A stretch of DNA of 61,030 nt, taken from the IMG/VR virus record IMGVR_UViG_3300030099_002804, positions 1-61,030 of that record; one strand, written 5' to 3'. Positions 8,665-49,850 of the stretch are shown piece by piece. The notes beneath the pieces are model-generated. The model searched no databases. It saw nothing but the letters and a program-made list of their open reading frames with translations, and was not told the origin of the DNA. The stretch comes from a virus (lineage: Duplodnaviria; Caudoviricetes). The position numbers and the translations under genes are program-made. The stretch's first letter is position 1; each line of letters opens with the position of its first letter.

Positions 8665-10032
8665 TTACTCCTCATGGACTACTGGTGCGAATAGAGAACC
8701 GATGTAGCCCTCCTTTTCGTCAATTAGATATGCGGCCAAACCTGCGGTGCTGGTAGTGTAACCTGCTCTTGCGTGGTATCTGTCGTGACCTGCAAGGGAT
8801 GGCATCTGTACAATTAGGCATCCGTCTTTTTCAGTTAGGCGTTGGTGGTGAAGGTGTCCGTGGAACCATACTCTATGGTCTGTCTGTCCCCACTGCTTCT
8901 TTGCTTCGTTAGCCATTAGCCCAGCAAGGCTATTGGTCTTTTTGAGTCCGTCACCGTGGGTGAATCCAAGCAGTGTTGAACCGTACACTAGGTAACGGCG
9001 GTTAAAGGAGGATATGGTAATTGTGACATCATCACAACCTTCGTATGCCGCAGATAGGTACATCATTAGTGCGATAGTGGAATGACGGTCGTGATTACCA
9101 GCCATCATTACTACTTCGACAGGTGCGATTTGTCGCATCAAGTCAATGTGTTCTCGGGCTAACTTGCATCCGGTAATAAGGATTTCAGCAGGGGAACCAC
9201 ACATATCTTGCAGTGTGCCTTTTGTGGTGGTGCCTTGGTCGTTATCAACATGGAACCAATCGGAACCAGCACCGACATAGATTTTTTCGGGAGCAGATGG
9301 GATTCTGCTAACGAGGCTTTCGGTCTTTTCCATTAGACGCTTTCGTGCCTCCTCGAAGTTGTATGTCTCGCCTACTTCATCCTCCCAGCCGTGTTTTCCC
9401 CAATGGAAATCGGTAGGGCATACTACTAGAGCGTATGGTGACGGGGCCACAGGTAATTTTAGTTTCGGCACTTTAAATGCGGCTTTTGGTAGGTCTTTGA
9501 GATAGTTTAGTTTCCACTCAAGGTCACGCCACTTAACCGCATCTTCTTCGAGTGCCTTGCGTTCACGCTTGTATATTTCCTGTGCGGCATTGTGTTTGCG
9601 CTGGGATAGCAAGTCCTCAATGTGTTGCTCGGGTTCATCGAGCAGTTGCTCGTTAGATAGCGGGACTGTGGAGTGTGTTACTTTGTGCGCTCTTTTCCAA
9701 GCCAAGAAGTGTTCAACGGGCATATCGTATTTGATTGCCATTTCGGAGGCGGTCAACGGGGTGCCGTCAAAACCGGAGTAGTCACGGAGCATGGCTCGGT
9801 GCTTTTCACCGGACATGCTGATGTCCCCAAAGGTAAGGGCCGTAATGTATGTGTCGGAGGACTCGTCGTAGGAGTATGAATCGTCTTTGACTTCGCTCTC
9901 GTAATTGATTAGGCGCATCTCCCACGCCTTCACTGTTGAGTCGGGGTAGTATTGGTTTAGTAGTCGTGCGTAGCCGATTCTGCTACCGGGGTGTTCATCC
10001 ATGTGCTTTAGTATCGTGTCTTGATGGGACAT
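8665..10032 (-). CDS. calcineurin-like metallophosphoesterase with N-terminal extension
   Basis: Motifs DFHWG, GSDWFH, GNHD, HGD and GHLH in canonical order. Confidence 0.85.
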   Translation of the reverse strand: MSHQDTILKHMDEHPGSRIGYARLLNQYYPDSTVKAWEMRLINYESEVKDDSYSYDESSDTYITALTFGDISMSGEKHRAMLRDYSGFDGTPLTASEMAIKYDMPVEHFLAWKRAHKVTHSTVPLSNEQLLDEPEQHIEDLLSQRKHNAAQEIYKRERKALEEDAVKWRDLEWKLNYLKDLPKAAFKVPKLKLPVAPSPYALVVCPTDFHWGKHGWEDEVGETYNFEEARKRLMEKTESLVSRIPSAPEKIYVGAGSDWFHVDNDQGTTTKGTLQDMCGSPAEILITGCKLAREHIDLMRQIAPVEVVMMAGNHDRHSTIALMMYLSAAYEGCDDVTITISSFNRRYLVYGSTLLGFTHGDGLKKTNSLAGLMANEAKKQWGQTDHRVWFHGHLHHQRLTEKDGCLIVQMPSLAGHDRYHARAGYTTSTAGLAAYLIDEKEGYIGSLFAPVVHEE

Positions 10033-12811: not shown

Positions 12812-13252
12812 TCAATTTACTCCCTCCAAATACATATCATAGGTGAAAGTCTGAGGGGGAAACACTCCATGCTTATCTAAGTATAGAGCCTGTTCTGCCG
12901 TTTCAATGTGCATGATACGCTTCAAGGTGTTAAGTCCTAGAATATCACAAATCTCGCCTTGAATCCTTGATGCTTTCAATTCACCCTCTAAAGTGAACGG
13001 GCAGTCATATTTTAGGTGTATAGTGTCATGTAATGCCCTAAATAGGATATTGAAGGGCGCACTGCCCCATATAGTTGAATGACTCTCTCCGCCCCATATC
13101 GGCATGGGTAACATTTTGTTATATGCCTCAATGACGGGCTCAAATCCCCTATCCTCAATTGTGACATAGAAGGGGTACACCCCGACATAATCACAGACCT
13201 TGAGAAGTCCGTTTTGTACTGCTTGCGTTAGTTCGGTAGGTATTGCGACCAT
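12812..13252 (-). CDS. hypothetical protein with FRALHDxxH...GE motif (possibly metal-binding or zincin-like)
   Basis: FRALHDTIHL...FTLEGE. Upstream CGCTGGGTT+TATA element is shared with the 10776 unit. Confidence 0.6.
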   Translation of the reverse strand: MVAIPTELTQAVQNGLLKVCDYVGVYPFYVTIEDRGFEPVIEAYNKMLPMPIWGGESHSTIWGSAPFNILFRALHDTIHLKYDCPFTLEGELKASRIQGEICDILGLNTLKRIMHIETAEQALYLDKHGVFPPQTFTYDMYLEGVN

Positions 13253-13313
13253 GTACCCCCTACGATACCCCACTATATGAACCCAGCGTTTCAGCAAATA
13301 GTCAATGAATCAA

Positions 13314-13382
13314 GTATATATCAGTAAGACTTCACTTATCACGGCTCAGTAAGAGAGAGAGAGAAAAGAGAGAGAGAGAGAA
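13314..13382 (+). repeat. oriented intergenic repeat, copy 5
   Basis: TATATATCAGTAAGAC...GGCTCAGTAAG followed by (GA)n. Confidence 0.8.
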
Positions 13383-13383
13383 C

Positions 13384-13416
13384 CCTATCATGAACGGCTT
13401 TACCTATCATGAACGG
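13384..13416. repeat. 14 bp direct repeat CCTATCATGAACGG x2 (possible operator)
   Basis: Exact copies at 13384 and 13403, upstream of the amidoligase unit promoter. Confidence 0.7.
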
Positions 13417-13514
13417 GCCGCCGACCCCCTCTCGGCGGGTGTTTTTTGACCCCCTTGAGTATTTAAAGAACCGAACATGTTCGTTAATTCTTTATACCAA
13501 CAGGGGGTATTCCG

Positions 13515-13900
13515 AGATTGCCCGCAAGGGCCGAAGCAATCGGACGCACATCCGAATTGAGGGAACCCCACTCAACCAAGCGCAAGTGCGGGGGGTTGTC
13601 GCTCTCAACACAAGTCCTACGGTGAAAATCCGTAGGCACCCTAGGTATCGCCACAGGCCTCAGTCGCTAGGGATAGGAGGACATGATTACTCACCATGTC
13701 ACCATGTCAATTCGAGCGTTTAGCCTTGGCATGATACGGTCTGAAGGACCACGCTATGTTCCAACATGGGACCTCATGAATCCTCCTTCGTTCTTTTTTC
13801 AAATCCTATTCACCTAGATTGAGGAGATGCAATTCAATGATTCAATCAATCCAACTCCCTGTCCGACGATATACAAAGTCGGGTCACAGGCGAGGAGCGT
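13515..13900 (+). ncRNA. long, densely structured leader or ncRNA
   Basis: At least eight consecutive hairpins after a TTTATA box at ~13492. Confidence 0.5.
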
Positions 13901-13909
13901 GAAATGTAA

Positions 13910-16432
13910 ATGCAAACAACAACAACAACAGGAAATATACTGTTGGACCTAGTTGTGGTATTGTTGGCACTATTGCCAATTATGATGCCACTTCTTGCTG
14001 TCCTAACAGTACTGAGAAATGAACGAATGAACATGCGAATAGGTCTTGAGATTGAAGCAATCAAGAAGGCCCACATTCGTGAGTCACCACATGAGAAGAT
14101 GGCACACTGGATAATGAAGTGTGATGAGAAGATGTTGAAACTAATGTCCTCTCGAACACGGAAAACCATTCGTGCCCTCAAAGTCTCATTCCGTGGCTAC
14201 ACTCACGAAGTCATGAGCGAAACGAAGATTGTCACAGACTCATCATTGAGTCGTGGCGGCTTTGAGATTGTGTCACCCCCACTAATCGGGCGTGGCGTGG
14301 TTATGTCGTGGATTAGTCGGATGATGTCACACCTTCGAGGCGTGGCTGAAGTCGATAGGTCATGCGGCCTTCATGTCCATGTGGGTCTGAAGGACTACGG
14401 CGCAAGGGCAAACCCCGTCGAGTTAGGCTTTACCGAGCCTTCAGACAACCTTAGTCCCGAGGACTACGCCAAGGCCGTTACAGGCCGTGTGGCGTGGGCT
14501 TACGGGTACTTTCAACATGCAATCAATCTGATTGTTAGCCCAAGCCGCCGTGACGGTGAATGGAGCCGTAATGTCTCCTACATCAGCCAACAATATCGCA
14601 ACCCAAGCGAAGTACGCTTCGCCCAGCGAAAGTGGAATGATGAACATGGAATGTATGTCCGAGAATGGCATACCGAAACCGACCCCGCAAAGGTTGGCAT
14701 GGTATTCTATGACCGACTGTACGAAGGTAATCCCGACTACGGTGACTCTCGCTATCAGTGCGTAAATCCTCAATCACTACCGAAATACGGTACGATTGAG
14801 TTTAGAGCGCACCAAGGCACCACAAACGCAACCAAGATTCAGAATTGGGTGCAATTTTTGCACCTACTGGTCAGCCGTTGTGCGAGTAACTATTGGACCG
14901 ACATCACCAATTTCCGTGGTGACTCAATCCATGACCTATTCACTTGGCTTGGTTTGGCAGACGATGACCCACTCTATGTGGCTATGGTTCGCCGTATCAA
15001 GGCACTGAATGGAAACAACCCTAGTGTATTCCGTAATGACCCAATCTTGGCACACAACGCACTTTTCAAGGAGAGCGTAGTTTGCTCCCGATGTGGTTCG
15101 GCTTCTTGTGACTCAGATGAAGTGTGTGGCACCAACTACACACAAGATTTGATGGAGGAAACCGAGGCTCACTTTTTGGACTTGGATAGGGCATGCGATA
15201 CATGTGGCACATTACTTCGGGAAACCGAAGCACACATGCGCTATGACTACGGCGACCATCATGAAGCACACTGCCCTAACTGCGGCGATATGAGAGTGTT
15301 CAACGCTATGGGAGGAGTTATCCTCTCAGTCATGCTTGGCACCCTACCACTCGCACTGGTTATTGTAGGATGTGGCATTGGTGCCATACATGCGGCGGCT
15401 AAGACCTTCAAGGCCAAGCGATTGTCAACTAGACTCTTCAAGGCATTATCAGCCCGAGGCAAACAAGCCTCGGGCTTTGCCTTTGAGAATGGAAAGGGAG
15501 TGTACTATGTGAAAGCACCACACTCCTCAATCGCTATGGCTCACCATGTCCCGAAGCAACTACGCAAGCAAACTCAGTGGAGTATGTTTCACACCCGCTT
15601 CGCAACTCATGGTGCCAACAACAAGGCAAACGCTCACCCTCACTTTGGTCGCAAGGCTAAGGTAACGCTAGTACACAACGGCGTCGTACACAACCACGAC
15701 GATGTATGGATGGCATTGGGCGAGAAGCCTACTGGCCCTGTGGACTCACAGGCCGTAGCACAGTGCCTAGAAGTTGGTGGTATCGAGAAGGTAGTCGAGT
15801 TATGCAAGGGCTCAATGTCCTTGATTTGGTCTGATAATCGTGACCCACAAGGTACCCTCAAGTGCTGGACTAATGGAGGCAATCCATTGGTTATGGGTCG
15901 CATAGACGACGCAAGCAACGGCCCCGTAGTAATTGCCTCAACTGAGGCACTACTCAAGGAGGGATGTGGCAAGCGACTCAAGACACATTGGGATGCAACC
16001 ATAGGGCGTGAATACACAATCTCGCCTACCGGTAGCATCAGCAAGCGTGACATCGAGGGCAGTGAAGCAACCGCCGGGGTCGTCTATGATTGGCGCACCT
16101 ACAAGGTCGATGACTACTACTACACCTACGGCGCAAACTACTCGACTACCAAGACCAAGAAGCGACACCTACCTTATCGCATCAAGCAAATTGCGAAGAA
16201 GGAGTTAGAGCGCCTTGGTAGTTGGGAGCCAATCGAAGGCAAATGGGATGGCTTCGACCTTCATACCTTCAGTGGCATCCACGCCGCTAAATGGGATAAG
16301 GATGGCAAGCCCTTGACCTACGCACTACCGCAGTACATCAACCCGATGCACTATGATAGTGACCTTGAGGAGATACTCATGGGGTCGCACAGACCCGATG
16401 AGTTGGACTCATGCACATATGAGGCCCCTTGA
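13910..16432 (+). CDS. amidoligase (COOH-NH2 ligase, GS fold) fused to class II (Ntn) glutamine amidotransferase
   Basis: Ligase motifs GLEIE, DSSL, FEIVSPPL, SCGLHVHVG, TIEFRAHQGT. GATase motifs CGI, RG..ASG, HTRFATHG, NAHPH, HNGVV, VDS. Confidence 0.85.
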   Translation: MQTTTTTGNILLDLVVVLLALLPIMMPLLAVLTVLRNERMNMRIGLEIEAIKKAHIRESPHEKMAHWIMKCDEKMLKLMSSRTRKTIRALKVSFRGYTHEVMSETKIVTDSSLSRGGFEIVSPPLIGRGVVMSWISRMMSHLRGVAEVDRSCGLHVHVGLKDYGARANPVELGFTEPSDNLSPEDYAKAVTGRVAWAYGYFQHAINLIVSPSRRDGEWSRNVSYISQQYRNPSEVRFAQRKWNDEHGMYVREWHTETDPAKVGMVFYDRLYEGNPDYGDSRYQCVNPQSLPKYGTIEFRAHQGTTNATKIQNWVQFLHLLVSRCASNYWTDITNFRGDSIHDLFTWLGLADDDPLYVAMVRRIKALNGNNPSVFRNDPILAHNALFKESVVCSRCGSASCDSDEVCGTNYTQDLMEETEAHFLDLDRACDTCGTLLRETEAHMRYDYGDHHEAHCPNCGDMRVFNAMGGVILSVMLGTLPLALVIVGCGIGAIHAAAKTFKAKRLSTRLFKALSARGKQASGFAFENGKGVYYVKAPHSSIAMAHHVPKQLRKQTQWSMFHTRFATHGANNKANAHPHFGRKAKVTLVHNGVVHNHDDVWMALGEKPTGPVDSQAVAQCLEVGGIEKVVELCKGSMSLIWSDNRDPQGTLKCWTNGGNPLVMGRIDDASNGPVVIASTEALLKEGCGKRLKTHWDATIGREYTISPTGSISKRDIEGSEATAGVVYDWRTYKVDDYYYTYGANYSTTKTKKRHLPYRIKQIAKKELERLGSWEPIEGKWDGFDLHTFSGIHAAKWDKDGKPLTYALPQYINPMHYDSDLEEILMGSHRPDELDSCTYEAP

Positions 16433-16484
16433 GCCAAGTGTTCATTCGTGACAACACAAGATACGACACACAGATGTCGAAGCC

Positions 16485-16710
16485 GGATTGTGGGGGGCCT
16501 CGGCCCCCCGCAATCCTCCCCCCTAGCATTACAACACTCCTCACCTATCACAATCACACTTACCACGCTTCTCTTAGAGGCGAGCCGCCTAGACAAGTGC
16601 GGGGTATCAAATCGGTCTAGCCACTGGAGTTTTCATCTCCTTTTCCAGTGGTTTTGGGATGTCGAGGCCCGTTCATAGCCTCGGCATCCCTCCTACTCCC
16701 TTGGAGGCAT
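16485..16710 (+). ncRNA. structured intergenic RNA
   Basis: Long hairpins at 16485-16516, 16589-16620, 16620-16651 and 16656-16690. Confidence 0.45.
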
Positions 16711-16714
16711 TACC

Positions 16715-16954
16715 ATGAGCGATAAACCGACCATGAAGTATTGTCCCCACATCGAATGTGGTGGTAAATTACAACCGCATTCATTTGACTCGGCAACGGG
16801 TTGCTTGGACTGTGATGGCCCATGCTCCCCCCGCCGTGTTCAGATGTGGCGAGACAATTTGAAGCAACCAACCGAGGAACCCGAACCTAGACTGGTCTAT
16901 CAAGGACCAGTTACCAAGGAGGTTTGGGAGGGCTTGTGCTACTGGAAACAGTGA
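16715..16954 (+). CDS. small Cys-rich protein
   Basis: CPHIEC...CLDCDGPC, GGAGG RBS. Confidence 0.6.
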   Translation: MSDKPTMKYCPHIECGGKLQPHSFDSATGCLDCDGPCSPRRVQMWRDNLKQPTEEPEPRLVYQGPVTKEVWEGLCYWKQ

Positions 16955-30820: not shown

Positions 30821-31479
30821 TTATTTTTACAAACGATGACGCAAGATACCGCAAGGGTGATTTCATATGTATGTATGGCGAGATTACAGTGCCTCCTACT
30901 ACACCCGATACCACATTTATCCTTCATAACAAGTCATTCAGCGAGGCTGATGTCCTATACTGGGCACCAATCATACGACACCGCTTGGTAGTAGTGGTTG
31001 ACAAGTTGCCTAAGTTGAGTGAAGCAAGCGAGGACTATGTTATCATAGACCAAGCACTGAAGGTTAAGGATAAGGACTTCACTCGTTCTATTCGTGCGGC
31101 TCTATGTTGGGTTGACCGTGACCGAGCGTTGACCGCACTTAGACCTGTCCCTCTTGCTTTGATGAACGCTTTCATCAAGGCTAATGTGGATAACATGCAG
31201 GTCGGCAGGTTGCTTGCTCGATGCCGATTTACTTTGCATGATGACTATACCCGAGCAGTTATGGCATACGGTATTTATCCTGTATCTAATTTCAAGTGGC
31301 CTAAGAAGTCACATAACAATACTAATATACTGCCGAGCGAGATGAGAAGAACAGACAAGCACTTGGGTGTCATACTGAATAATGACATCGTAGTATCTAA
31401 TGCAATCCGTAGGGATGCACCGGACACTTTGCCCAAAGGCTTGCCTAAACGAAAACAGAAGGCGATAGAATGGCTATGA
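30811..31479 (+). CDS. hypothetical protein
   Basis: 222 aa ORF in the operon. Confidence 0.65.
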   Translation: MGVVIFTNDDARYRKGDFICMYGEITVPPTTPDTTFILHNKSFSEADVLYWAPIIRHRLVVVVDKLPKLSEASEDYVIIDQALKVKDKDFTRSIRAALCWVDRDRALTALRPVPLALMNAFIKANVDNMQVGRLLARCRFTLHDDYTRAVMAYGIYPVSNFKWPKKSHNNTNILPSEMRRTDKHLGVILNNDIVVSNAIRRDAPDTLPKGLPKRKQKAIEWL

Positions 31480-31826
31480 ATGAAGTATTTGTGTATGGAA
31501 CACTGAAGCGAAACCAACATAACAATGACCTACTTCGTGATTCACAATTCTTAGGTGAATACGAAACCGACCCACGCTGGGGCTTAGTAACACTGGGGTC
31601 TTTCCCCGGCATGGTTCCCGGCAACTTGGCGGTAAAGGGTGAAGTATTTTTGGTGGATGATGATGTATTGGAGGCTCTCGATTTATTAGAGGGTGTGGAG
31701 CATGGCCTGTATAACAGGCACCGCATCCCTATTAACTGTCCTGTGACGGGCGAGAAGCGTAATGTGTGGGCTTATCTATACGGTGGTATAGTGTATATGC
31801 CCGACATCTTCGAGGAGTGGTCTTGA
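31470..31826 (+). CDS. gamma-glutamylcyclotransferase (AIG2-like)
   Basis: VFVYGTLK, FPGM, VKGEVF, LDLLEG, Y.R, WAYLY. Confidence 0.9.
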   Translation: MAMNEVFVYGTLKRNQHNNDLLRDSQFLGEYETDPRWGLVTLGSFPGMVPGNLAVKGEVFLVDDDVLEALDLLEGVEHGLYNRHRIPINCPVTGEKRNVWAYLYGGIVYMPDIFEEWS

Positions 31827-42204: not shown

Positions 42205-42933
42205 ATGCTAGTGGTGGATGACCGAGAGAATGACCTTTTGATTCACAAACTATATGCGTCTATGGGCCGCCATGATGAAGGCGGTCATGTTAAAGTCAAG
42301 CGGCTACCTTCTGCCGATTATGTTATCGGGGAGATAGGGATAGAGGCTAAGGAGATAAATGACTTGTATCATTCTATCATGGGTCACGGTCGCTCTCGCA
42401 CAATCATTGGGCAGTTGGTGGATTTACAGGAGTCATTTGAGCGACCTATGTTAGTAGTCTATGGCACCAAGTTGAAGCCGTATCTGCCGGGCAGAAGGCC
42501 CAATCGTGCTGAGATTGCTAAAGAGATGAAAAAGATGCAAGCAGTAATCAAGAAGTTTAAGCAAAACTTCGTGATTCAATTCCCAAACATTCAATTCATG
42601 GAGTTATCAAGTATGGATGATATGGTGGATTGGTTATCATCTGTGCATCACAATCTGCGTATTAGACAGAAGCCTATATCTGAACCTGCCGAAAGAACCC
42701 GCCGAAGCAATCGCAAGGTGGACTTGCGTGTTAGAGTCCTTGCCGCAATTGACGGCATCTCGGAGAGAGCAGCCCATGATTTGTTAACCGAGTTTGGCTC
42801 TATTCCACGCCTGTTGCGCTCTCGCACAAGCCAGCGAAAACTCATGGAGATAGAGGGTATAGGTCGTAAAAGAGCCAAGGCTATTTTATCCCTGCGTGAA
42901 CGCTACCCCGACCAGCCCGACCGTCACTCGTAA
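42205..42933 (+). CDS. ERCC4/XPF-family nuclease with HhH2 domain
   Basis: VDDRE, ADY, IEAK...DL..SI, tandem HhH (IDGIS, IEGIG). Confidence 0.88.
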   Translation: MLVVDDRENDLLIHKLYASMGRHDEGGHVKVKRLPSADYVIGEIGIEAKEINDLYHSIMGHGRSRTIIGQLVDLQESFERPMLVVYGTKLKPYLPGRRPNRAEIAKEMKKMQAVIKKFKQNFVIQFPNIQFMELSSMDDMVDWLSSVHHNLRIRQKPISEPAERTRRSNRKVDLRVRVLAAIDGISERAAHDLLTEFGSIPRLLRSRTSQRKLMEIEGIGRKRAKAILSLRERYPDQPDRHS

Positions 42934-45900
42934 CTCATTTGGTTGGACTGACTATCGCCGGACACAGAACGGCTATCAAACCCTACCTGTATGTTGTGTA
43001 GTGTTACGCTACTGTATTGTGCAGTATCGGGAGATACACCTGCGGCACGACTAATTTTAATCTCGATAGTGTTATTCGGTATATCTAAGCCGTCTAATCC
43101 ACCATTAAATAATGTCACAGAAGAATTGGTACCCACTGCTAAAGTAACAGTTCTATTAGCAGTAGCGCCGGTTTCGACACACTTTACTTCTATATCCAAA
43201 GAAGCAACACCGCTTGCGGCACCTAATGTGTACCTACCCATTATGTTTGCTTGCCTACTGTTGCTATTTTGAGGGACTCTAACCACTGTTGTGAACTCGT
43301 TATACGCTTGGGCCGCATCAGTAGCACCAGCAAAAGACATTCCGTTGCTAGTCATAACTGCGTCACCCGAGGATGGGGTGATGAATGAATCCACACCCTC
43401 AACTCCCGATGTCTTTTTTGGTGCAATCGCTGGCTTCTTTTGACCCAAAACTGCGAAGTTACCACCCAAAACGCTGTCATTGTTGAACTCCATACTACCC
43501 TTAATTTTGTTACTAAGCCCACTACTCAATATGTTACTACTAATAGTCTTGGGTGAGTTACTAGATAAGTTAGTACCATCCACATTAGGCCCGGTACCTA
43601 CCTGTGTTAGTGGATTAAAGTCCACGCCAGTAGTAGTCCCAAACCCAACTCCGCTAGTACCGCTACTATTCCAAGCACCACTAACAGGAGTACCGCCAAA
43701 TCCACCCCAATCAAATGTACCGGAGCCTTGGGGTTTAGATGTATCACCACTGGGCCCGCCCCTACCACTTGTGCCACTACCGGGGGTCTGTGTTCCCCCC
43801 TTGTTAGTTGCTGGCAAAAGCAAAGAAGCGAAGTTCTGAATGCTTCTGCTAACATCTCTCTCTAGTGTTAATTGTACTTGTTGCCTATCGGCACCCCTAG
43901 CAGACCACTGTACCTGCTTGATACCCATAACTTCATTACTTAATTCTAATACCGAGTCCGTGTATGAAACTTGAGTTCCCGGTACAAAGTTTATATCGTC
44001 ACAGATGTGCAAGCGAGGAGCGTACCACTCAGACCTGCGCCCCATATAATTTACTTCAGTCTCATTCCACTTTCTCATCCCAAGAGGGAATAGACTATCT
44101 CCATTTATAGTTGAGTGAGTCGAGCCACCATAAACACTACCATTTGCTAATGTTCCTGTACCACACCTATTCTTTGCTACCGCTAAAAGATAGTCATAAT
44201 TAACTGATAGTACAATTCTTTCAGTGCCATCTCGACCTGTCCAATATGTGCTAGGAATATCTATTTCATAATAACCGTTTGAATCAACCGAAACGCTGGT
44301 GCTACTTCTTGCGCTTGCTACGAAATCTCTATCTGTCCAATCGTAGTCTATTAGTCGCACCCTAAAGACTGGATTTATTGCAGTAGCGGCGTATGAATCA
44401 ATTGTACCGTCACCTACTTCAACAACAAATCTCAGTTTGCCGTCTGCATTTATGTTTGAACCAGCAGGTGTTTTCATTGTTGTTTTTGGCATGTCCCTTG
44501 GTATGTGTACTACCTGCAAAGCATAACTCAAAGATGCCGCACCATACCAATAATACATTATATCATATGTTTTTTGTGTCATAGGGATTATGTAATTAGA
44601 GTTACCATCCCTACCGTTAAGAGCAGACACCATACCGGGGAATAGATTGCCTCCCCATATGCTAGTCCATGCCCACGCTTTATCCTCCACATAAGAACCA
44701 CCTGTGCCATATGTTCTCGGGATGGTTCTTGATTGGTCGGCAATATAACCGTATCTTGCTCCATTAACCATCATGTCATCAAGACCGGACATTCTGTAAC
44801 TATTGTCGAAGTTCAGTATTTGAGCGTCTATTGTCAACGGTGCCCCCTTATTCTTCTCATATTCTGCCTTTGCTACTGCCAGTGCTTCTGCATTCGTAGT
44901 TACAGAAGGCATATTGAGTATCTCCCAGCGTGGAGTTTCGCCCAAAGTGGGGGTAGGGTAGTCAACAAATGACCCACCAGCACCATAAAACACCCTAACA
45001 TTGGTGATTTGTTTGTTGGACTGAGTGTTGAGGGTGGAAACCCTAACATTATCTCTATTAAGAGCCAAGTTCATATCATAGTTTGGTCTGTATGAGGGCT
45101 TAGAGTCACGCCCCATCAACCATGAGAATACCTGTCTAACTCCATTAGTTCCTCCTAAACCAGCAAGTGATTGTGAACTTGAGTATATTGTAGTTATTGT
45201 AGTGTTTCTGCAATCATTTACGCCGCCGAAATCATCAACCGAATTAGTCAATCTCCACCTACCAAAAGAACCCGACCCTGCTACTGATGTAGTGTTGGGT
45301 ATGGTAAAAGTATCATTAGCAGGTACCGCAGTGATTACTTCAGTCTTAGTTTTTCCTAATAGGCTGATTCTTTCACTATCTATTACTGTAACACTGTCGC
45401 CTACGGACAAGCCGTGTGGTACTCCTGTGGTAAAGGTGGATGAACCACTACTAGGGGCGGTTATCGCCGTGATTATCCCTCCCCTACCAGTGGTGTTACA
45501 GTCAGTAAATACTGTTGCCATATCCCTTGTGATTGGTACTGTGCTAATATCGTGCATACCGTATAGTCTTGATTGGCTTATCCAATTCTTAGTTAGACAA
45601 TCTAAGTACGACATTCGCAACTTTTCACTATCCCACCAAGTACCACTTGCTTTGTTTTCAATAAACCCGTTAAGTGCCATAATAAGGCGCATAGGAAACA
45701 CATTACCTAACCCACCATAAACAAGAGCGTCTGTGTATGAGTTTTGGTTGTCGGGGTTTAGTGAAATACCTATCTCCGCTTCGTTATTAGGTATTGTTAT
45801 ACTACCAGTAGCACCGGTGTATGTTAAATAAAATGCAGCGTTAACGCTACCGTAACCCTCCCCATTCCATTCGCCAGCAGTAGTGGTGTTTTTTACAGGC

Positions 45901-48900
45901 ATACCTAACGATAATAATGTTCTCAATGGTCGTGTGTTTAAGGCATCTAATTTACCTGTGCCCGCACTAATAGTAACACCCGCATCAATAGCAATTGTCA
46001 GCGTGGTTGTTGCCGCATAGGGTGTTGCTGGGTTAACTGCATTTATACGAGATATTGTGTAGTCCCCATCTATACTCGGAGTAGTTGTGCTATCTCTAAT
46101 CGTAATTTTATGACCGGTCCTGTACATATGGCCTATTCTATTAACTGCACCCGAAGTATCTGTGATTGTGACAAACCCTGCGCCGTCTGCCGCAAATGAA
46201 ACTGCTCTATCCTTAAACGGATAAGCCGAACCATCCCATGTTCCGGTTGCACTATAGGTTGCGAAGTGGAAAATTGTATTTTTTTCCTCGGAACGGATTT
46301 GACCTACTTGTGTGTCAATTGGAGGCAACACGCTTGCGTTAGTCAATTGTATAATCTTATCACCAATCTCTATTTCAGTTTCTAATGTAGTAGGGTCATT
46401 TACTAGGTAAATGTAATTACTATTCCACGAACTACTGTTAACTATGTTTTCGTATGTGGTTGGGGCTTTAGTCCAATAGTTGTCAATTAAAACAGGGAAC
46501 CCTTCAGTTTCCACTAGGTAATCACCAATCTCCTTTCGCCCTCCCGAAGCCTGTCCGGTTTTACCACCGTTGCTAACAGTGTTTAGGTTGAAAAACTTTG
46601 AGGAATCTATGATAACAAAGGAACCACCTTTTTCCTCCCAGTTATGGTACTTAGTGTTAGATTCGTCATTAGAGGCACCGGTGGCACTGCTCCACGGATT
46701 ACCTGTTATGGGGTCAGTAGTAGCATCAATCTCCCAAATATCAACATCTTCGCCTATTTTCAAATCAACAAATCTTTCCCTATCCTGTACTGCTGATATG
46801 TTTGTGTCAGCGATACCCAAAGACAATTCGTAGTTGCCCGAATAAGGTGTCATCAAACCAAACTGCTTTTTCCTACGAGAGTTGTCTGCATCAGCACTGC
46901 CATCATTACGCATGTCGGCCCAAAGAACCCAAATGTGTTTATAATCATTTTTATCGAGCCTTCTTATTGCATAATTAGAACCCGAAGGGTGGCTACGCTG
47001 GAAAAAGTTGGTTTCGGGCAAAGTCAAAACAGTTTGCCCGTATTTGATTGTAACTCCAGTGTATTCATCATTTACTCGATAGTCATTAGGTATGGTATTA
47101 TTTCCAGCAATCACTTGAGCATTAGTTTGAGTAGGTAATCCGGTATCTTGATATGCGGTATTTGGACTAACTGCTCCAGTAGGGCTATTCGTTTGCCCTA
47201 TCCATCTAAATTGACCGTTAAGTACACCACCCGAACCGGATGAATCATTAGGCCCAAATCTTCTCATACGATAAGCCCAATAATCCACGCCATCAATTGT
47301 TAATTCCCTAGGGTGATTACCGAGAGGAGTTCCGGGTATATATGATGTCTCATTCATGGCTAATGTGTATGACTCAAGCATTACCGATGGCAACCCACCA
47401 CCCTCGATAGTCATAGTATCTGTGTTTAGTCCTATGTCGCCGTGATTTGCATATGCTGTTTTTGGTACAAATAACATTATTTCGTAAATATAACCGGTGT
47501 AGTCGGGGGCTGTTGCGCCATACTTATTGATTAACTTGTAATAGTGTCTGCTGTTGGCTTGTGTGGCAGATGCGTTAGGGTCGGACAAAATCCTTCCTTC
47601 ATACACCCTAACTATACAATTTGTTACCGTATTGGTAGTGCTTATGCCTGTATAAACTCCCGAATCAACAAATAAGTCATCGTCAATAAACTCAATACTA
47701 CCAGTGGAACTAAGATTGGTCGCTACTCCGTTTATTGTTATTGTTGTGTCGCCGGGAGTGAAGTCTGAAGAAGTGGTGCTTATGCTCCTCCAACCGTTAT
47801 TACCGTTACGAGCAGTTCCGTAGTATGTTGTATCTCGCCCTAATACATTCATAGGAGTTTTTTCGATTTTGGAAAATAAGTGTGTGAACCACGGAGATAG
47901 TCTTAGGTCTTTTATCCATCTTGAGTGAATGCTGCGATATGCTGTGTCTGCGGTAGCATGGCCGCCTGTGATAGCCGAATCCCAATCATCATAAGCGTCA
48001 TTTGGCCCTTTTGTATCTTCACCGGAATACATCTGAATAGGGTGGGCAGACCTGTTCCTCATCCTACTATCCAAATGCCATTTCCATGTACCCGTTCCGT
48101 CTTGTACTTCATTGAAACCTAAGTCTTGGTTTGCTGATTCTAGTAGGGATGCACCGAAGTAATAAGCGTTAAGTTGATTTTGTGCCTCGCTTCTATCATA
48201 AGCCACTTGTGCGGTAGTGTCACCTTCTGCTCCTTGACCCATTTCCCATGTAGGTAATTGAGTATCAAGATTAGCGAAATAATCAACTGCATTAATCTTC
48301 ACCGTTGGGGTTCTCCCATTACCATCTTGCGAGTATGACATTCCCGTTATGCCGCCTCTCCATAGGGGGCGGTCAATACGATTATGGAACATTAACAAAG
48401 ACCATTCGGAGTAGGATGATTGATTAAAGAATGAAATTAACTTTAGTTGAGCATCGTCATCCACTACACTAACCGATAAACTAGAGGATGCGTTAGTTGT
48501 TGCGGTACAGTCGAAGTCAACTGCGGGTGGCATTTCGGTAGTGCTTAGTGGGTAGTCGTTTAGTGGTCTAATCAACCCTACTCTATCAATCAACACGCTA
48601 ACTTTTTTTGCCGCCTTCTTAACATCTAACTCCCAACCGTACATATCAGCCGCAGTGAATTGAGAACCGTCGGCCTTCGTTCCTATTGAGTTACCTGTCG
48701 ATACAGATGCGCCATTTTTAACGATGTCATATGTCCCTGCGGTGTAGTTCATAATGAAGTCGTAATCATCCCATAGAGTGTCCATACTGGTTCCGGCATA
48801 TGTAGTCATCTCTTGGAACCCTATGGGTGTTATTTCGTAATCAATAGCGGCTCTTGTGTAACCAGTATCTCCACTAACAGTTGATGTAAAAGCAGTGCCT

Positions 48901-49850
48901 TCACAACCAATACGAAGTCTAACTCTTGCTAAAGTAGTATCTATTGCCATAGGACAGATACGAATAGTGAATATATCTCCATCACCCTTGCTATTTAATG
49001 TACCATCGTATGAAATAATTGGGTCGTATGAAGTAGTTGAGTTTTGATAGACTTCGGTAACTAAGAATGGTTTGCCGCTTGGGGACTCGATAGGCATTAG
49101 TGCCGCTTTAGGCATTCCGTTATTCAAAGCGTCGTTAAAGGGTACTTCGCCGGAATAAACACCGACTAAGTTGGTTCTAACTATTTTGGCTGGTGCCGCT
49201 AAAACTGCTGATGGAGAACTCATAGGCATACCGGACTCCGGTTCTAAGGCCGGTGAAATCCCACCCGAGTTATACATTGGGTCGTGCATAGATGCCCTAC
49301 CAAATGTGGAGTCGTTGCTACCAGTTGCTACATAGTATCTTTTAGATGTGTCATATCCGTTACACATTATCAAATACCCCTCCACTGCCGCATAGTTAGA
49401 TTTACTAGTGTCAGTTTCGTATGCTTTGGTAGCACCGCCAATAACCCCAGTACCGCCGTCAAACTTTTGGCGATTGGCGTTTGTTAGGGAATCCGGGTAT
49501 TCTAGTTGTGCAAGCCCATCCCATTTGCCGGGGTTGTTTCGGTTAATATCCAGTGTAGCCCACTCGCTAACACCTTTGTTGAATGTGTATTGTATAGAAG
49601 AGGCCACGCTACTATTGTTAAATCTTGCAGAATCTCCGTCACCACGCTCGACCCAAGCGTAGGTATATCTTGGGTTCAAAGTAGCCCAGCCGTTAATAGG
49701 GTTGCCGTGATGTGTTTTAGAAGAATACCATGTTAAAGCAGGTCTATTTTCGTCATCGGGGACTGTTCGTGCCGCCATAAAATCGTCATAGTAACCAGCC
49801 AACCAAAATGTGTATTTGCCTTCATCTATACTTCTAACCATTCTTTTCAC
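42924..49850 (-). CDS. very large tail tip/central fibre protein
   Basis: 2308 aa, beta-rich S/T/G/N composition, directly after tape measure. Confidence 0.7.
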   Translation of the reverse strand: MKRMVRSIDEGKYTFWLAGYYDDFMAARTVPDDENRPALTWYSSKTHHGNPINGWATLNPRYTYAWVERGDGDSARFNNSSVASSIQYTFNKGVSEWATLDINRNNPGKWDGLAQLEYPDSLTNANRQKFDGGTGVIGGATKAYETDTSKSNYAAVEGYLIMCNGYDTSKRYYVATGSNDSTFGRASMHDPMYNSGGISPALEPESGMPMSSPSAVLAAPAKIVRTNLVGVYSGEVPFNDALNNGMPKAALMPIESPSGKPFLVTEVYQNSTTSYDPIISYDGTLNSKGDGDIFTIRICPMAIDTTLARVRLRIGCEGTAFTSTVSGDTGYTRAAIDYEITPIGFQEMTTYAGTSMDTLWDDYDFIMNYTAGTYDIVKNGASVSTGNSIGTKADGSQFTAADMYGWELDVKKAAKKVSVLIDRVGLIRPLNDYPLSTTEMPPAVDFDCTATTNASSSLSVSVVDDDAQLKLISFFNQSSYSEWSLLMFHNRIDRPLWRGGITGMSYSQDGNGRTPTVKINAVDYFANLDTQLPTWEMGQGAEGDTTAQVAYDRSEAQNQLNAYYFGASLLESANQDLGFNEVQDGTGTWKWHLDSRMRNRSAHPIQMYSGEDTKGPNDAYDDWDSAITGGHATADTAYRSIHSRWIKDLRLSPWFTHLFSKIEKTPMNVLGRDTTYYGTARNGNNGWRSISTTSSDFTPGDTTITINGVATNLSSTGSIEFIDDDLFVDSGVYTGISTTNTVTNCIVRVYEGRILSDPNASATQANSRHYYKLINKYGATAPDYTGYIYEIMLFVPKTAYANHGDIGLNTDTMTIEGGGLPSVMLESYTLAMNETSYIPGTPLGNHPRELTIDGVDYWAYRMRRFGPNDSSGSGGVLNGQFRWIGQTNSPTGAVSPNTAYQDTGLPTQTNAQVIAGNNTIPNDYRVNDEYTGVTIKYGQTVLTLPETNFFQRSHPSGSNYAIRRLDKNDYKHIWVLWADMRNDGSADADNSRRKKQFGLMTPYSGNYELSLGIADTNISAVQDRERFVDLKIGEDVDIWEIDATTDPITGNPWSSATGASNDESNTKYHNWEEKGGSFVIIDSSKFFNLNTVSNGGKTGQASGGRKEIGDYLVETEGFPVLIDNYWTKAPTTYENIVNSSSWNSNYIYLVNDPTTLETEIEIGDKIIQLTNASVLPPIDTQVGQIRSEEKNTIFHFATYSATGTWDGSAYPFKDRAVSFAADGAGFVTITDTSGAVNRIGHMYRTGHKITIRDSTTTPSIDGDYTISRINAVNPATPYAATTTLTIAIDAGVTISAGTGKLDALNTRPLRTLLSLGMPVKNTTTAGEWNGEGYGSVNAAFYLTYTGATGSITIPNNEAEIGISLNPDNQNSYTDALVYGGLGNVFPMRLIMALNGFIENKASGTWWDSEKLRMSYLDCLTKNWISQSRLYGMHDISTVPITRDMATVFTDCNTTGRGGIITAITAPSSGSSTFTTGVPHGLSVGDSVTVIDSERISLLGKTKTEVITAVPANDTFTIPNTTSVAGSGSFGRWRLTNSVDDFGGVNDCRNTTITTIYSSSQSLAGLGGTNGVRQVFSWLMGRDSKPSYRPNYDMNLALNRDNVRVSTLNTQSNKQITNVRVFYGAGGSFVDYPTPTLGETPRWEILNMPSVTTNAEALAVAKAEYEKNKGAPLTIDAQILNFDNSYRMSGLDDMMVNGARYGYIADQSRTIPRTYGTGGSYVEDKAWAWTSIWGGNLFPGMVSALNGRDGNSNYIIPMTQKTYDIMYYWYGAASLSYALQVVHIPRDMPKTTMKTPAGSNINADGKLRFVVEVGDGTIDSYAATAINPVFRVRLIDYDWTDRDFVASARSSTSVSVDSNGYYEIDIPSTYWTGRDGTERIVLSVNYDYLLAVAKNRCGTGTLANGSVYGGSTHSTINGDSLFPLGMRKWNETEVNYMGRRSEWYAPRLHICDDINFVPGTQVSYTDSVLELSNEVMGIKQVQWSARGADRQQVQLTLERDVSRSIQNFASLLLPATNKGGTQTPGSGTSGRGGPSGDTSKPQGSGTFDWGGFGGTPVSGAWNSSGTSGVGFGTTTGVDFNPLTQVGTGPNVDGTNLSSNSPKTISSNILSSGLSNKIKGSMEFNNDSVLGGNFAVLGQKKPAIAPKKTSGVEGVDSFITPSSGDAVMTSNGMSFAGATDAAQAYNEFTTVVRVPQNSNSRQANIMGRYTLGAASGVASLDIEVKCVETGATANRTVTLAVGTNSSVTLFNGGLDGLDIPNNTIEIKISRAAGVSPDTAQYSSVTLHNIQVGFDSRSVSGDSQSNQMSYE

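Follow-up and report, generated by a model that had tools for sequence, protein, structure and literature searches.

How does a glutaminase whose chemistry depends on a cysteine at the very start of the chain come to carry that cysteine in the middle of a much longer protein? The question is raised by a gene in the 61,030 bp stretch of DNA analysed here (the window), which is a complete virus record (IMG/VR, IMGVR_UViG_3300030099_002804) and in which one open reading frame (ORF) encodes a carboxylate-amine ligase followed by a class II glutamine amidotransferase (GATase). Enzymes of the N-terminal nucleophile (Ntn) type use the free alpha-amino group of residue 1 in catalysis, and here the nucleophile would be residue 488 of 840, directly behind a hydrophobic segment. 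An earlier note, made from the letters of this DNA, had pointed to the arrangement and had proposed that the protein must be cut precisely between a glycine and the cysteine, by itself or by a host membrane protease. We find that the architecture is conserved, down to the residues of the junction, in a whole clade of fused proteins. The reading that we prefer, and that we regard as evenly poised between right and wrong, is that of a membrane-associated two-enzyme precursor that would undergo autoproteolysis at the Gly487-Cys488 bond on the cytoplasmic side of the membrane. From the N- to the C-terminus the elements are the following, GS standing for glutamine synthetase and AF2 for AlphaFold2:

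13910-16432 (+): the precursor ORF, 840 aa, stop codon included in the coordinates, an open frame without internal stops that starts at the first ATG after the preceding stop
13937-14014 (+): hydrophobic helix 1, residues ~10-35 (hydropathy peak of 2.94 at residues 14-32; helix at about residues 10-40 in the AF2 model; flank charges)
14015-15034 (+): GS-fold carboxylate-amine ligase (Amidoligase_2), residues ~36-375 (Pfam, 56.9 bits; PHROG 2443; VIA Z 12.0)
15062-15304 (+): two Cys4 clusters, a Zn-knuckle plus a Zn-ribbon-like one (conserved Cys; a weak match to Pfam DZR, E 0.03; znr hidden Markov model, HMM)
15305-15370 (+): hydrophobic leader, or segment 2, residues 466-487, rich in Gly, Ser and Pro and ending in L-[LIV]-V-G (hydropathy peak of 2.48 at residues 470-488)
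15368-15373 (+): predicted scissile bond Gly487/Cys488, codons GGA (15368-15370) and TGT (15371-15373) (direct reading; column conservation)
15371-16024 (+): class II (Ntn) GATase, residues 488-705 (Pfam, NCBIfam, PDB profile search, Foldseek)
16025-16429 (+): linker (residues 726-751, low confidence) and conserved C-terminal domain, residues ~752-831 (AF2 confidence above 84 for 752-831)

Hydropathy was scanned with the Kyte-Doolittle scale over 19 residues, for which the usual transmembrane (TM) threshold is 1.6. Pfam places Amidoligase_2 (PF12224) in the N-terminal half and GATase_6, GATase_4 and GATase_7 from residue 488 onward, the 'amidoligase enzyme' and 'glutamine amidotransferase' families of PHROGs were both matched, and the AF2 model of the whole 840-aa protein has a mean predicted local distance difference test score (pLDDT) of 85.8, with both enzyme cores above 90. 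Every element named in the earlier note (hydrophobic segments, ligase, Cys clusters, the CGI motif and a class II GATase) was found in its place by Pfam, hydropathy or direct reading, and its domain assignments are borne out by the AF2 model and by fold searches, which return a GS-fold ligase and an Ntn GATase. For the latter, position 1-2 of the NCBIfam glmS, purF and asnB models falls on residue 488, and a profile-to-PDB search reached the glutaminase domain of Escherichia coli GlmS (1xff) with an E-value of 1.3e-18. Foldseek, run with the model from residue 488 onward, gave E-values of about 1e-12 to 1e-9 against GFAT-1, GlmS and PurF (2.4e-12 to 3.4e-11 for GFAT-1 and GlmS, with a template modelling score of 0.73 on the 1xff glutaminase domain, i.e., the Ntn alpha-beta-beta-alpha fold). 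In an alignment of 71 sequences the invariant columns include C488, G489, G491, R516, G517, H561, T562, R563, T566, H567, G568, N574-H578, H589, N590, G591 and D612, and those of the GATase coincide, in the profile-to-PDB alignment, with the residues for glutamine binding and for the oxyanion in 1xff (R563, T566, N590, G591 and D612 are presumably Arg73, Thr76, Asn98, Gly99 and Asp123 of GlmS). Since the cysteine aligns with Cys1 of glmS and purF, and since both the CGIG motif and the glutamine-site residues are invariant, the GATase domain is predicted from its sequence to be under selection as an active Ntn enzyme.

The Amidoligase_2 match of the N-terminal half (56.9 bits) stands well above the curated cut-off of 22. 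A Foldseek search with the full model yielded GATase matches only, so the ligase half was modelled separately (predicted template modelling score 0.81) and submitted to a VIA search, which aligns every PDB representative. The top 18 rows were all GS-fold carboxylate-amine ligases, among them the YbdK-like 1tt4 (Z 12.0, root-mean-square deviation 4.6 over 231 residues), GshF (3ln7, Z 12.0), several GS (Z ~11), plant GCL (11.1), GmaS (10.9), PafA (10.7) and Dop (10.5). Invariant in the 71-sequence alignment are E47, E49, E119, H155, H157, R281, E297, R299 and H301; we take E47/E49, H155/H157 and E297/R299/H301 to resemble the ExE, HxH and ExR metal and phosphate/ATP motifs of the GS fold, a mapping made by motif and not by residue-level superposition. 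Behind the ligase come the Cys clusters, C392/C395/C400/C406 and C429/C432/C455/C458, of which C392, C395 and C400 are conserved in at least 90% of the same alignment. A predicted complex of ligase residues 36-467 with GATase residues 488-840 reached scores of 0.02 and 0.00, where the mark is 0.32, and we count it neither for nor against binding.

A search of the protein collection gave 132 matches, and the homolog counts that follow rest on the 120 listed (121 sequences with the query), aligned with MAFFT. Both Pfam families were present in 109 of the 120, at identities from 90% down to 31%, and both hydrophobic segments in 111, the nine that lack helix 1 being truncated entries. The junction of the query reads V-I-V-G/C-G-I-G, where the slash marks the predicted cut. 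Across the alignment the Cys column is C, and the CGIG motif invariant, in 121/121; the residue at -1 is G in 110 sequences, A in five, N in three, Q in two and K in one; and the end of the leader runs L (104 sequences), then L, I, V, A or T (position -3, 121/121), then V (103) or I (17). The hydrophobic segment and the Gly-Cys junction, for which the earlier note had proposed a check across homologs, are conserved. It had also described the GATase as complete with an internal nucleophile, and this is what the alignment gives: the catalytic residues are intact, the cysteine is residue 488, and no methionine stands directly before it in any of the 121 sequences.

The most trivial explanation for such an internal cysteine would be an artefact, in which an error of assembly or sequencing has joined separate genes for the ligase and for a GATase starting M-CGI, or in which the GATase is translated from an internal start. 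That distant relatives are indeed two genes speaks for it. Against it, contigs of three further sequencing runs span the Gly-Cys codons with 0 gaps (X10 record 5, 15267-16061, with one substitution at 15577; X9 record 12, 15165-15430; X8 record 8, 15315-16500). The same fused open frame occurs in 20 IMG/VR loci (L002-L020 and L022) among the 80 kept from 125 stretches that encode relatives, and in 27 representative clusters (see below). A merger is refuted at the DNA level, and an internal translation start was rejected because the junction has neither a start codon nor a Shine-Dalgarno sequence; besides, 15 of the 121 homologs have no Met at all within 40 residues upstream of the cysteine. 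We consider that this explanation has next to no chance of being correct. Beyond the two enzymes, znr HMM matches were found in 13 of the 20 fused loci (a match in L023 falls in an unrelated 70-aa ORF), and those of the cterm HMM are restricted to the 20 fused loci plus L021, a split locus discussed below. In the ESM Atlas the best scores for residues 700-840 were 0.81, no better than chance, and no family lead emerged for the C-terminal domain.

A HMMER profile of the family, run against 1.84 billion representatives clustered at 50% identity, gave 36,745 matches at E<=1e-3 and 439 at E<=1e-30, of which the best 150 were classified. Among these 150 there were 27 fused proteins (26 called by script plus P0229, recognised by eye), 35 standalone GATases starting Met-Cys, two standalone GATases with a short hydrophobic leader, 75 sequences with the ligase only (eight of them with a TM-grade segment), 10 fragments by script (P0229 being counted here too), one partial sequence and one matching neither domain. 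A hydrophobic segment directly before the cysteine was present in 27/27 fused representatives, so that fusion is found exclusively together with a leader, and even the remote fusions P0159, P0161 and the 1288-aa P0229 keep it in front of CGIG. The earlier note had allowed for an assembly error that hides a stop and a restart, and for homologs without linkers; the gap-free contigs, the 20 loci and the 27/27 leaders bear out neither. No fused form was found among cultured phages, in a collection of 50,697 records of which five matched and 0 covered at least 80% of the query in one place.

Some further observations were made on these sequences. The remote fusions P0229 (1288 aa) and P0096-P0102 and P0155 (about 1080-1130 aa) are larger, with additional regions at the N-terminus or in mid-protein. 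All have a hydrophobic segment directly before CGIG, and P0229 has in addition another hydrophobic segment and a long, helical, charged region ahead of the ligase. Six short entries that looked like split GATases with a TM segment (P0022, P0095, P0103, P0111, P0112 and P0114) were rejected as such, for they start inside the Zn-cluster or C-terminal ligase region and are truncated gene calls. At the DNA level, a perfect 10-bp hairpin at 15451-15476 lies ~80 nt past the Cys codon (RNA fold about -27 kcal/mol with flanks), with a promoter-like match upstream at 15422-15449. We rejected the hairpin as an element: neither L002, at 95% identity, nor the more distant relatives preserve it, and it derives from the codons of a conserved R-G-x-Q-A-x-G motif.

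Relatives in which the two enzymes are separate proteins serve as natural controls. The fetched loci contain 81 GATase-bearing ORFs, and the cysteine could be located by script in 64 of them (20 fused, 44 split); the other 17 were dropped because the HMM alignment fell short of the N-terminus, although 10 of these are Met-Cys by eye. In 42 of the 44 split GATases Met stands directly before the cysteine, the exceptions being L021, which has a hydrophobic leader, and L053, where Ile precedes the cysteine, probably as a start-codon issue. Lysines and arginines after the cysteine average 5.6 in the fused against 2.9 in the split proteins, and a TM-grade segment was found in just one of 46 split ligase ORFs, that of L021. 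Taken together, the Met-Cys starts, the TM-poor split ligases and the lower basicity after the cysteine indicate that the fused clade is distinguished by its two helices and its basic patch. L021 itself is a gene split inside this clade. Its ligase retains helix 1 and ends directly after the Zn clusters, the TGA overlapping the next ATG (TGATG), and in its GATase ORF 14-16 hydrophobic residues separate the initial Met from N/CGIG. A further case of this kind, with a sequence distinct from that of L021, is P0162, and in P0182, a standalone GATase that is much more distant, 14 hydrophobic residues form a leader of its own ahead of G/CGVG. In all three the leader has stayed with the GATase upon fission, as if it belonged functionally to the cysteine, and this pattern of sequences argues that the leader is more than a tail of the ligase and serves the glutaminase as a propeptide or targeting element.

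On which side of the membrane would the junction lie? The positive-inside rule allows orientation to be read from flanking charges, and these were averaged over the 114 full-length homologs. The tail in front of helix 1 (median 13 residues) is acidic, with 0.18 K+R and 1.75 D+E, and its C-terminal side is basic (K+R 4.46). By the rule, helix 1 is therefore predicted to be an N-out/C-in anchor that keeps the ligase in the cytoplasm. Segment 2 has the same polarity, with 0.39 K+R and 2.23 D+E in the 15 residues before it and 5.3 K+R against 0.17 D+E in the 25 residues after the cysteine, a bias from which we infer that the Gly487-Cys488 junction faces the cytoplasm. Before the cysteine runs an uncharged, Gly- and Ser-rich stretch with a median length of 28 residues, and in 116/121 sequences it contains a Pro 7-11 residues upstream of the cysteine. 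The first catalytic strand of the ligase (E47/E49) lies ~8 residues past helix 1 and the glutaminase starts 0-1 residue past segment 2. With both active sites so near to the hydrophobic segments, a membrane-proximal substrate is favoured. The fused clade in this way supplies a location for the enzymes, and one that fits the guess of cell-envelope modification better than a role on DNA or on a soluble metabolite.

These data bear directly on the other way of freeing the cysteine, namely export. Segment 2 would then be an internal N-in/C-out signal and leader peptidase would cut after V-G, giving a periplasmic gamma-glutamyl or iso-glutamine hydrolase that acts on peptidoglycan while the ligase stays cytoplasmic. 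The topology required is a simple one of two helices (N-out, ligase in, GATase out), the Gly or Ala at -1 in 115/121 sequences and the residues at -3 in all 121 would be acceptable to signal peptidase I, glutaminase chemistry is independent of ATP, and GATases of the phage amidoligase cassette have been grouped under 'peptidoglycan degradation' genes in the accessible text of one study (PMC5498523). However, the charge bias around segment 2 is the reverse of what export demands, an uncharged stretch of ~28 residues has the length of an anchor and not of a cleavable h-region, and the c-region is wholly hydrophobic. Moreover, N, Q or K occupies -1 in 6/121, the soluble relatives pair both enzymes in the cytoplasm, and there are several conserved Cys inside the domain. 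We judge export to be decidedly unlikely.

A lipoprotein is a related possibility, I-V-G/C being read as a lipobox, with Lgt lipidating Cys488 and signal peptidase II cutting to leave a lipid-anchored GATase. The loose pattern [LVI][ASTVI][GAS]C does fit 104/121 junctions, but such a match is the default for any hydrophobic stretch that ends in Gly-Cys, and the 17/121 that fail it include those with N, Q or K at -1. The segment is internal (466-487), follows a folded, Zn-binding domain placed in the cytoplasm, has no basic n-region and has its basic residues after the cysteine, and turning the Cys thiol into a thioether would leave the enzyme with no nucleophile, all of which makes a lipoprotein very improbable. 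The signal-peptidase or lipobox route offered in the earlier note is thus not supported, given the reversed charge bias, the internal position of the segment, the N, Q or K at -1 in six sequences and the block that S-lipidation would impose on the nucleophile.

What remains of that proposal is the cut itself. Ntn enzymes catalyse through the free alpha-amino group of residue 1, and class II GATases (MEROPS C44) are described, in the accessible part of the source, as removing autocatalytically the residues ahead of the cysteine (PMC9140057). With an internal cysteine, an intact catalytic set and standalone relatives that start Met-Cys, the claim that canonical Ntn chemistry calls for a cut exactly between Gly and Cys is upheld, and we hold it probable that the protein has to be cut there by one route or another. 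Within that estimate the autocatalytic, cytoplasmic route takes the larger part, being by itself neither more nor less credible than its negation, and export the small remainder. The intact catalytic set and the internal cysteine make autoproteolysis in cis at Gly487/Cys488 the parsimonious reading, and a bond at the cytoplasmic face would be out of reach of signal peptidases I and II. In the mechanism that we propose, helix 1 would hold the ATP-dependent ligase at the cytoplasmic face of the host inner membrane, and the glutaminase would be made with its nucleophile masked by 487 residues, to be unmasked by an intramolecular N-to-S acyl shift of the Ntn-hydrolase type. The products would be a ~53 kDa ligase, with the hydrophobic leader as its C-terminal tail (a second anchor or a re-entrant segment), and a ~39 kDa active glutaminase that its basic N-terminal region may keep at the membrane. 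Together they would amidate a carboxylate of a membrane-proximal substrate at the expense of ATP and with ammonia derived from glutamine; our leading guess for that substrate is a lipid-linked cell-envelope precursor. The peptide or amide tagging system that the earlier note had in mind is possible.

The chemistry could also be a different one, whether or not the protein is cleaved, and here another gene of the window comes in:

31470-31826 (+): gene for a GGACT/AIG2-like gamma-glutamyl(amine) cyclotransferase, 118 aa (PF06094, E 4e-23, 78 bits, six-frame search)

In this alternative the ligase would gamma-glutamylate an amine, in the manner of GmaS, PuuA or YbdK, the Ntn domain would hydrolyse or transfer the gamma-glutamyl amide, and the unlinked GGACT-like enzyme would remove gamma-glutamyl groups as 5-oxoproline. 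The nearest ligase folds do include the gamma-glutamyl ligases GshF, GCL and GmaS, the glutamine-site residues recognise the glutamyl moiety only, and the GGACT-like gene is present here and in 5/5 related near-complete genomes tested. These five are kin, however, so that the co-occurrence is not independent, and the gene is surrounded by replication genes, 15 kb away from that of the ligase-GATase and not adjacent to it. A RimK-type ATP-grasp (PF08443) gave 0 matches in a six-frame search of the complete 61,030-bp record with the RimK model alone, the control being positive in 13/14 genomes. COOH-NH2_lig (PF14395) also had 0 matches in the genome, but the control genomes were equally silent. 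A glutaminase fused to an ATP-dependent synthase is, moreover, the standard layout for channelling ammonia. We regard the gamma-glutamyl alternative as a tenable minority view.

Several points weigh against autoproteolysis at the cytoplasmic face and the amidation that would follow. The known propeptides of class II GATases consist of a few hydrophilic residues, quite unlike an enzyme of 487 residues that has a hydrophobic helix at its end. Both hydrophobic segments carry an N-out/C-in signature, which one uncleaved two-helix chain cannot satisfy. The leader has no confident AF2 model (pLDDT below 50 and no regular helix at residues 468-485), so the geometry of the precursor at the active site cannot be read from it. 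The residues at -3 and -1 (aliphatic, and Gly or Ala) would, as said, suit signal peptidase I too, the GGACT-like gene fits the chemistry of a gamma-glutamyl handle at least as well as ammonia transfer, and the substrate is wholly a matter of deduction. The cleavage, finally, is itself deduced from sequence.

The topological frustration could be resolved by cleavage, the freed leader inserting as a tail anchor antiparallel to helix 1, or by a re-entrant hairpin around the conserved Pro, and we do not rank the two. The second solution would suit an intact membrane protein that is never cut, in which segment 2 is a monotopic re-entrant hairpin, both domains sit on the inner leaflet, and the GATase-like domain works with an internal cysteine or only senses glutamine or gamma-glutamyl compounds. 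The Pro 7-11 residues before the cysteine in 116/121 sequences, the Gly/Ser-rich composition and the absence of a regular helix from the AF2 model of segment 2 are in line with it, and a re-entrant segment would settle the frustration uncut. Such a protein would nonetheless lack the free alpha-amino group on which Ntn catalysis depends (PMC9140057, as far as the accessible text goes), the invariance of the full catalytic set argues for real glutaminase activity, and unfused relatives outside the clade expose the cysteine through an M-C start. An uncut protein appears to us unlikely.

If autoproteolysis takes place, an entire partner enzyme would serve here as the 'propeptide' of an Ntn amidotransferase. 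This would offer a way around the rule that puts the GATase first in fusions, and the protein would be a rare enzymatic polyprotein in a tailed phage. One may go further, in a proposal that we offer tentatively and think more likely wrong than right, and take Ntn self-cleavage as polyprotein maturation and membrane delivery in one. The hydrophobic propeptide would bring the precursor to the membrane, and a single cut would both activate the glutaminase and turn the leader into a tail anchor that pairs with helix 1, pinning the ligase at both ends. The resulting 1:1 complex would amidate a lipid-linked envelope precursor (a peptidoglycan stem peptide or the uronic acid of a surface glycan), remodelling the cell surface against superinfection.

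The genome in which the gene sits is that of a marine tailed phage, with genes for a tape-measure protein, a minor tail protein, a large terminase, an exonuclease, a family-A-type DNA polymerase, a clamp-loader-like ATPase and a DNA methyltransferase; no tRNA genes were found in the 61,030-bp record. Two short features precede the fused gene, both read from the sequence:

13892-13897 (+): GAGGAG, Shine-Dalgarno-like
13904-13909 (+): minimal ATG-TAA start-stop, abutting the ORF's own ATG at 13910

The spacing of GAGGAG is optimal for the minimal start-stop, and the arrangement ahead of the ATG at 13910 could be one of reinitiation or could be due to chance. A promoter scan of 13200-16800 stayed at the level of chance (four found against 3.8 expected), and terminator-like hairpins in the same interval are in excess (nine against 2.8 +/- 1.6 in shuffles), a strong one lying at 13418-13438 (+) in a ~600-bp non-coding stretch upstream of the gene. 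The exonuclease gene (8665-10032, -) is on the opposite strand ~4.9 kb upstream, a placement found in 18/22 loci, so that in this phage group the rightward (replication-side) block has the fused gene as its first large one. Directly downstream (16429-16954, +) are a 63-aa ORF and a Cys-rich 79-aa ORF, whose family is found at the same relative place in 13/22 related loci. Clustering of the neighbours over the 22 loci revealed no conserved enzymatic partner adjoining the fused gene. Beside the tape-measure gene there is also a 2308-aa ORF (42924-49850, -) that matched no PHROG at E<=0.001 and presumably encodes a giant protein of the tail or of host interaction.

How does this gene compare with what is known? 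The pair of amidoligase and class II GATase is among the most widespread enzyme modules of lytic phages without a known product, and the phage amidoligase cassette, also labelled a 'peptidoglycan modification' cassette, was reportedly described, by computation, by Iyer, Abhiman, Burroughs and Aravind in 2009 (Mol Biosyst). The membrane-delivery proposal, if true, would give this 2009 cassette its first mechanistic and locational handle. The cassette is known from phiEco32, LUZ24-like phages, RIO-1, OM43 and other phages (PMC3890496, PMC5498523, PMC10580990, PMC11706807, as far as their accessible text goes), and its function is called unexplored in the accessible parts of citing papers (PMC10580990, PMC11706807). 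Our gene shares with the phiEco32/LUZ24/RIO-1 type the pairing of Amidoligase_2 with a class II GATase, the presence of a gene for a GGCT/AIG2-like enzyme in the genome, an early or replication-side position, and a function that is a matter of prediction. It differs in being a single ligase-then-GATase polypeptide with two hydrophobic segments, in having its GGACT-like gene at a distance instead of adjacent, and in the lack of any RimK-type ATP-grasp found. The closest cultured-phage relatives among the five matched records are gp65 (carboxylate-amine ligase) and gp66 (GATase) of Arthrobacter phage Ottawa (OQ938580.1); their gene order is the same, and in two pieces they align with 63% of the query at 27% identity. 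These, however, are two separate soluble proteins, neither with a hydrophobic segment, and gp66 starts Met-Cys. We found no description of a fused or TM-bearing form in the literature searched, which did not extend to the founding paper of 2009 and its supplements, where fusions or TM segments may be mentioned.

Propeptides are found in class II GATases such as Bacillus subtilis PurF and glutamate synthase. There too the cysteine is made internal and exposed by autocatalytic removal (MEROPS C44; PMC9140057, accessible text), but what is removed is a hydrophilic stretch with no function of its own, from a few up to some tens of residues long, whereas here it would be a membrane-anchored enzyme of 487 residues with a hydrophobic end. 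The proposed mechanism also recalls the MurT/GatD complex that amidates lipid II, in which an ATP-dependent ligase and a glutaminase amidate a membrane-bound envelope precursor (PMC3267633, accessible text), with the difference that its folds are unrelated (Mur-ligase-like and class I GATase) and that it has no fusion, TM helix or self-cleavage. PafA/Dop, YbdK, GshF and glutamine synthetase share the carboxylate-amine ligase fold (VIA Z 10.5-12.0) at 9-17% identity, and they carry neither a membrane anchor nor Zn clusters nor a fused Ntn domain. Set beside these systems, the fused form, with its predicted membrane anchoring, adds a new architecture to a known, biochemically uncharacterised phage enzyme system.

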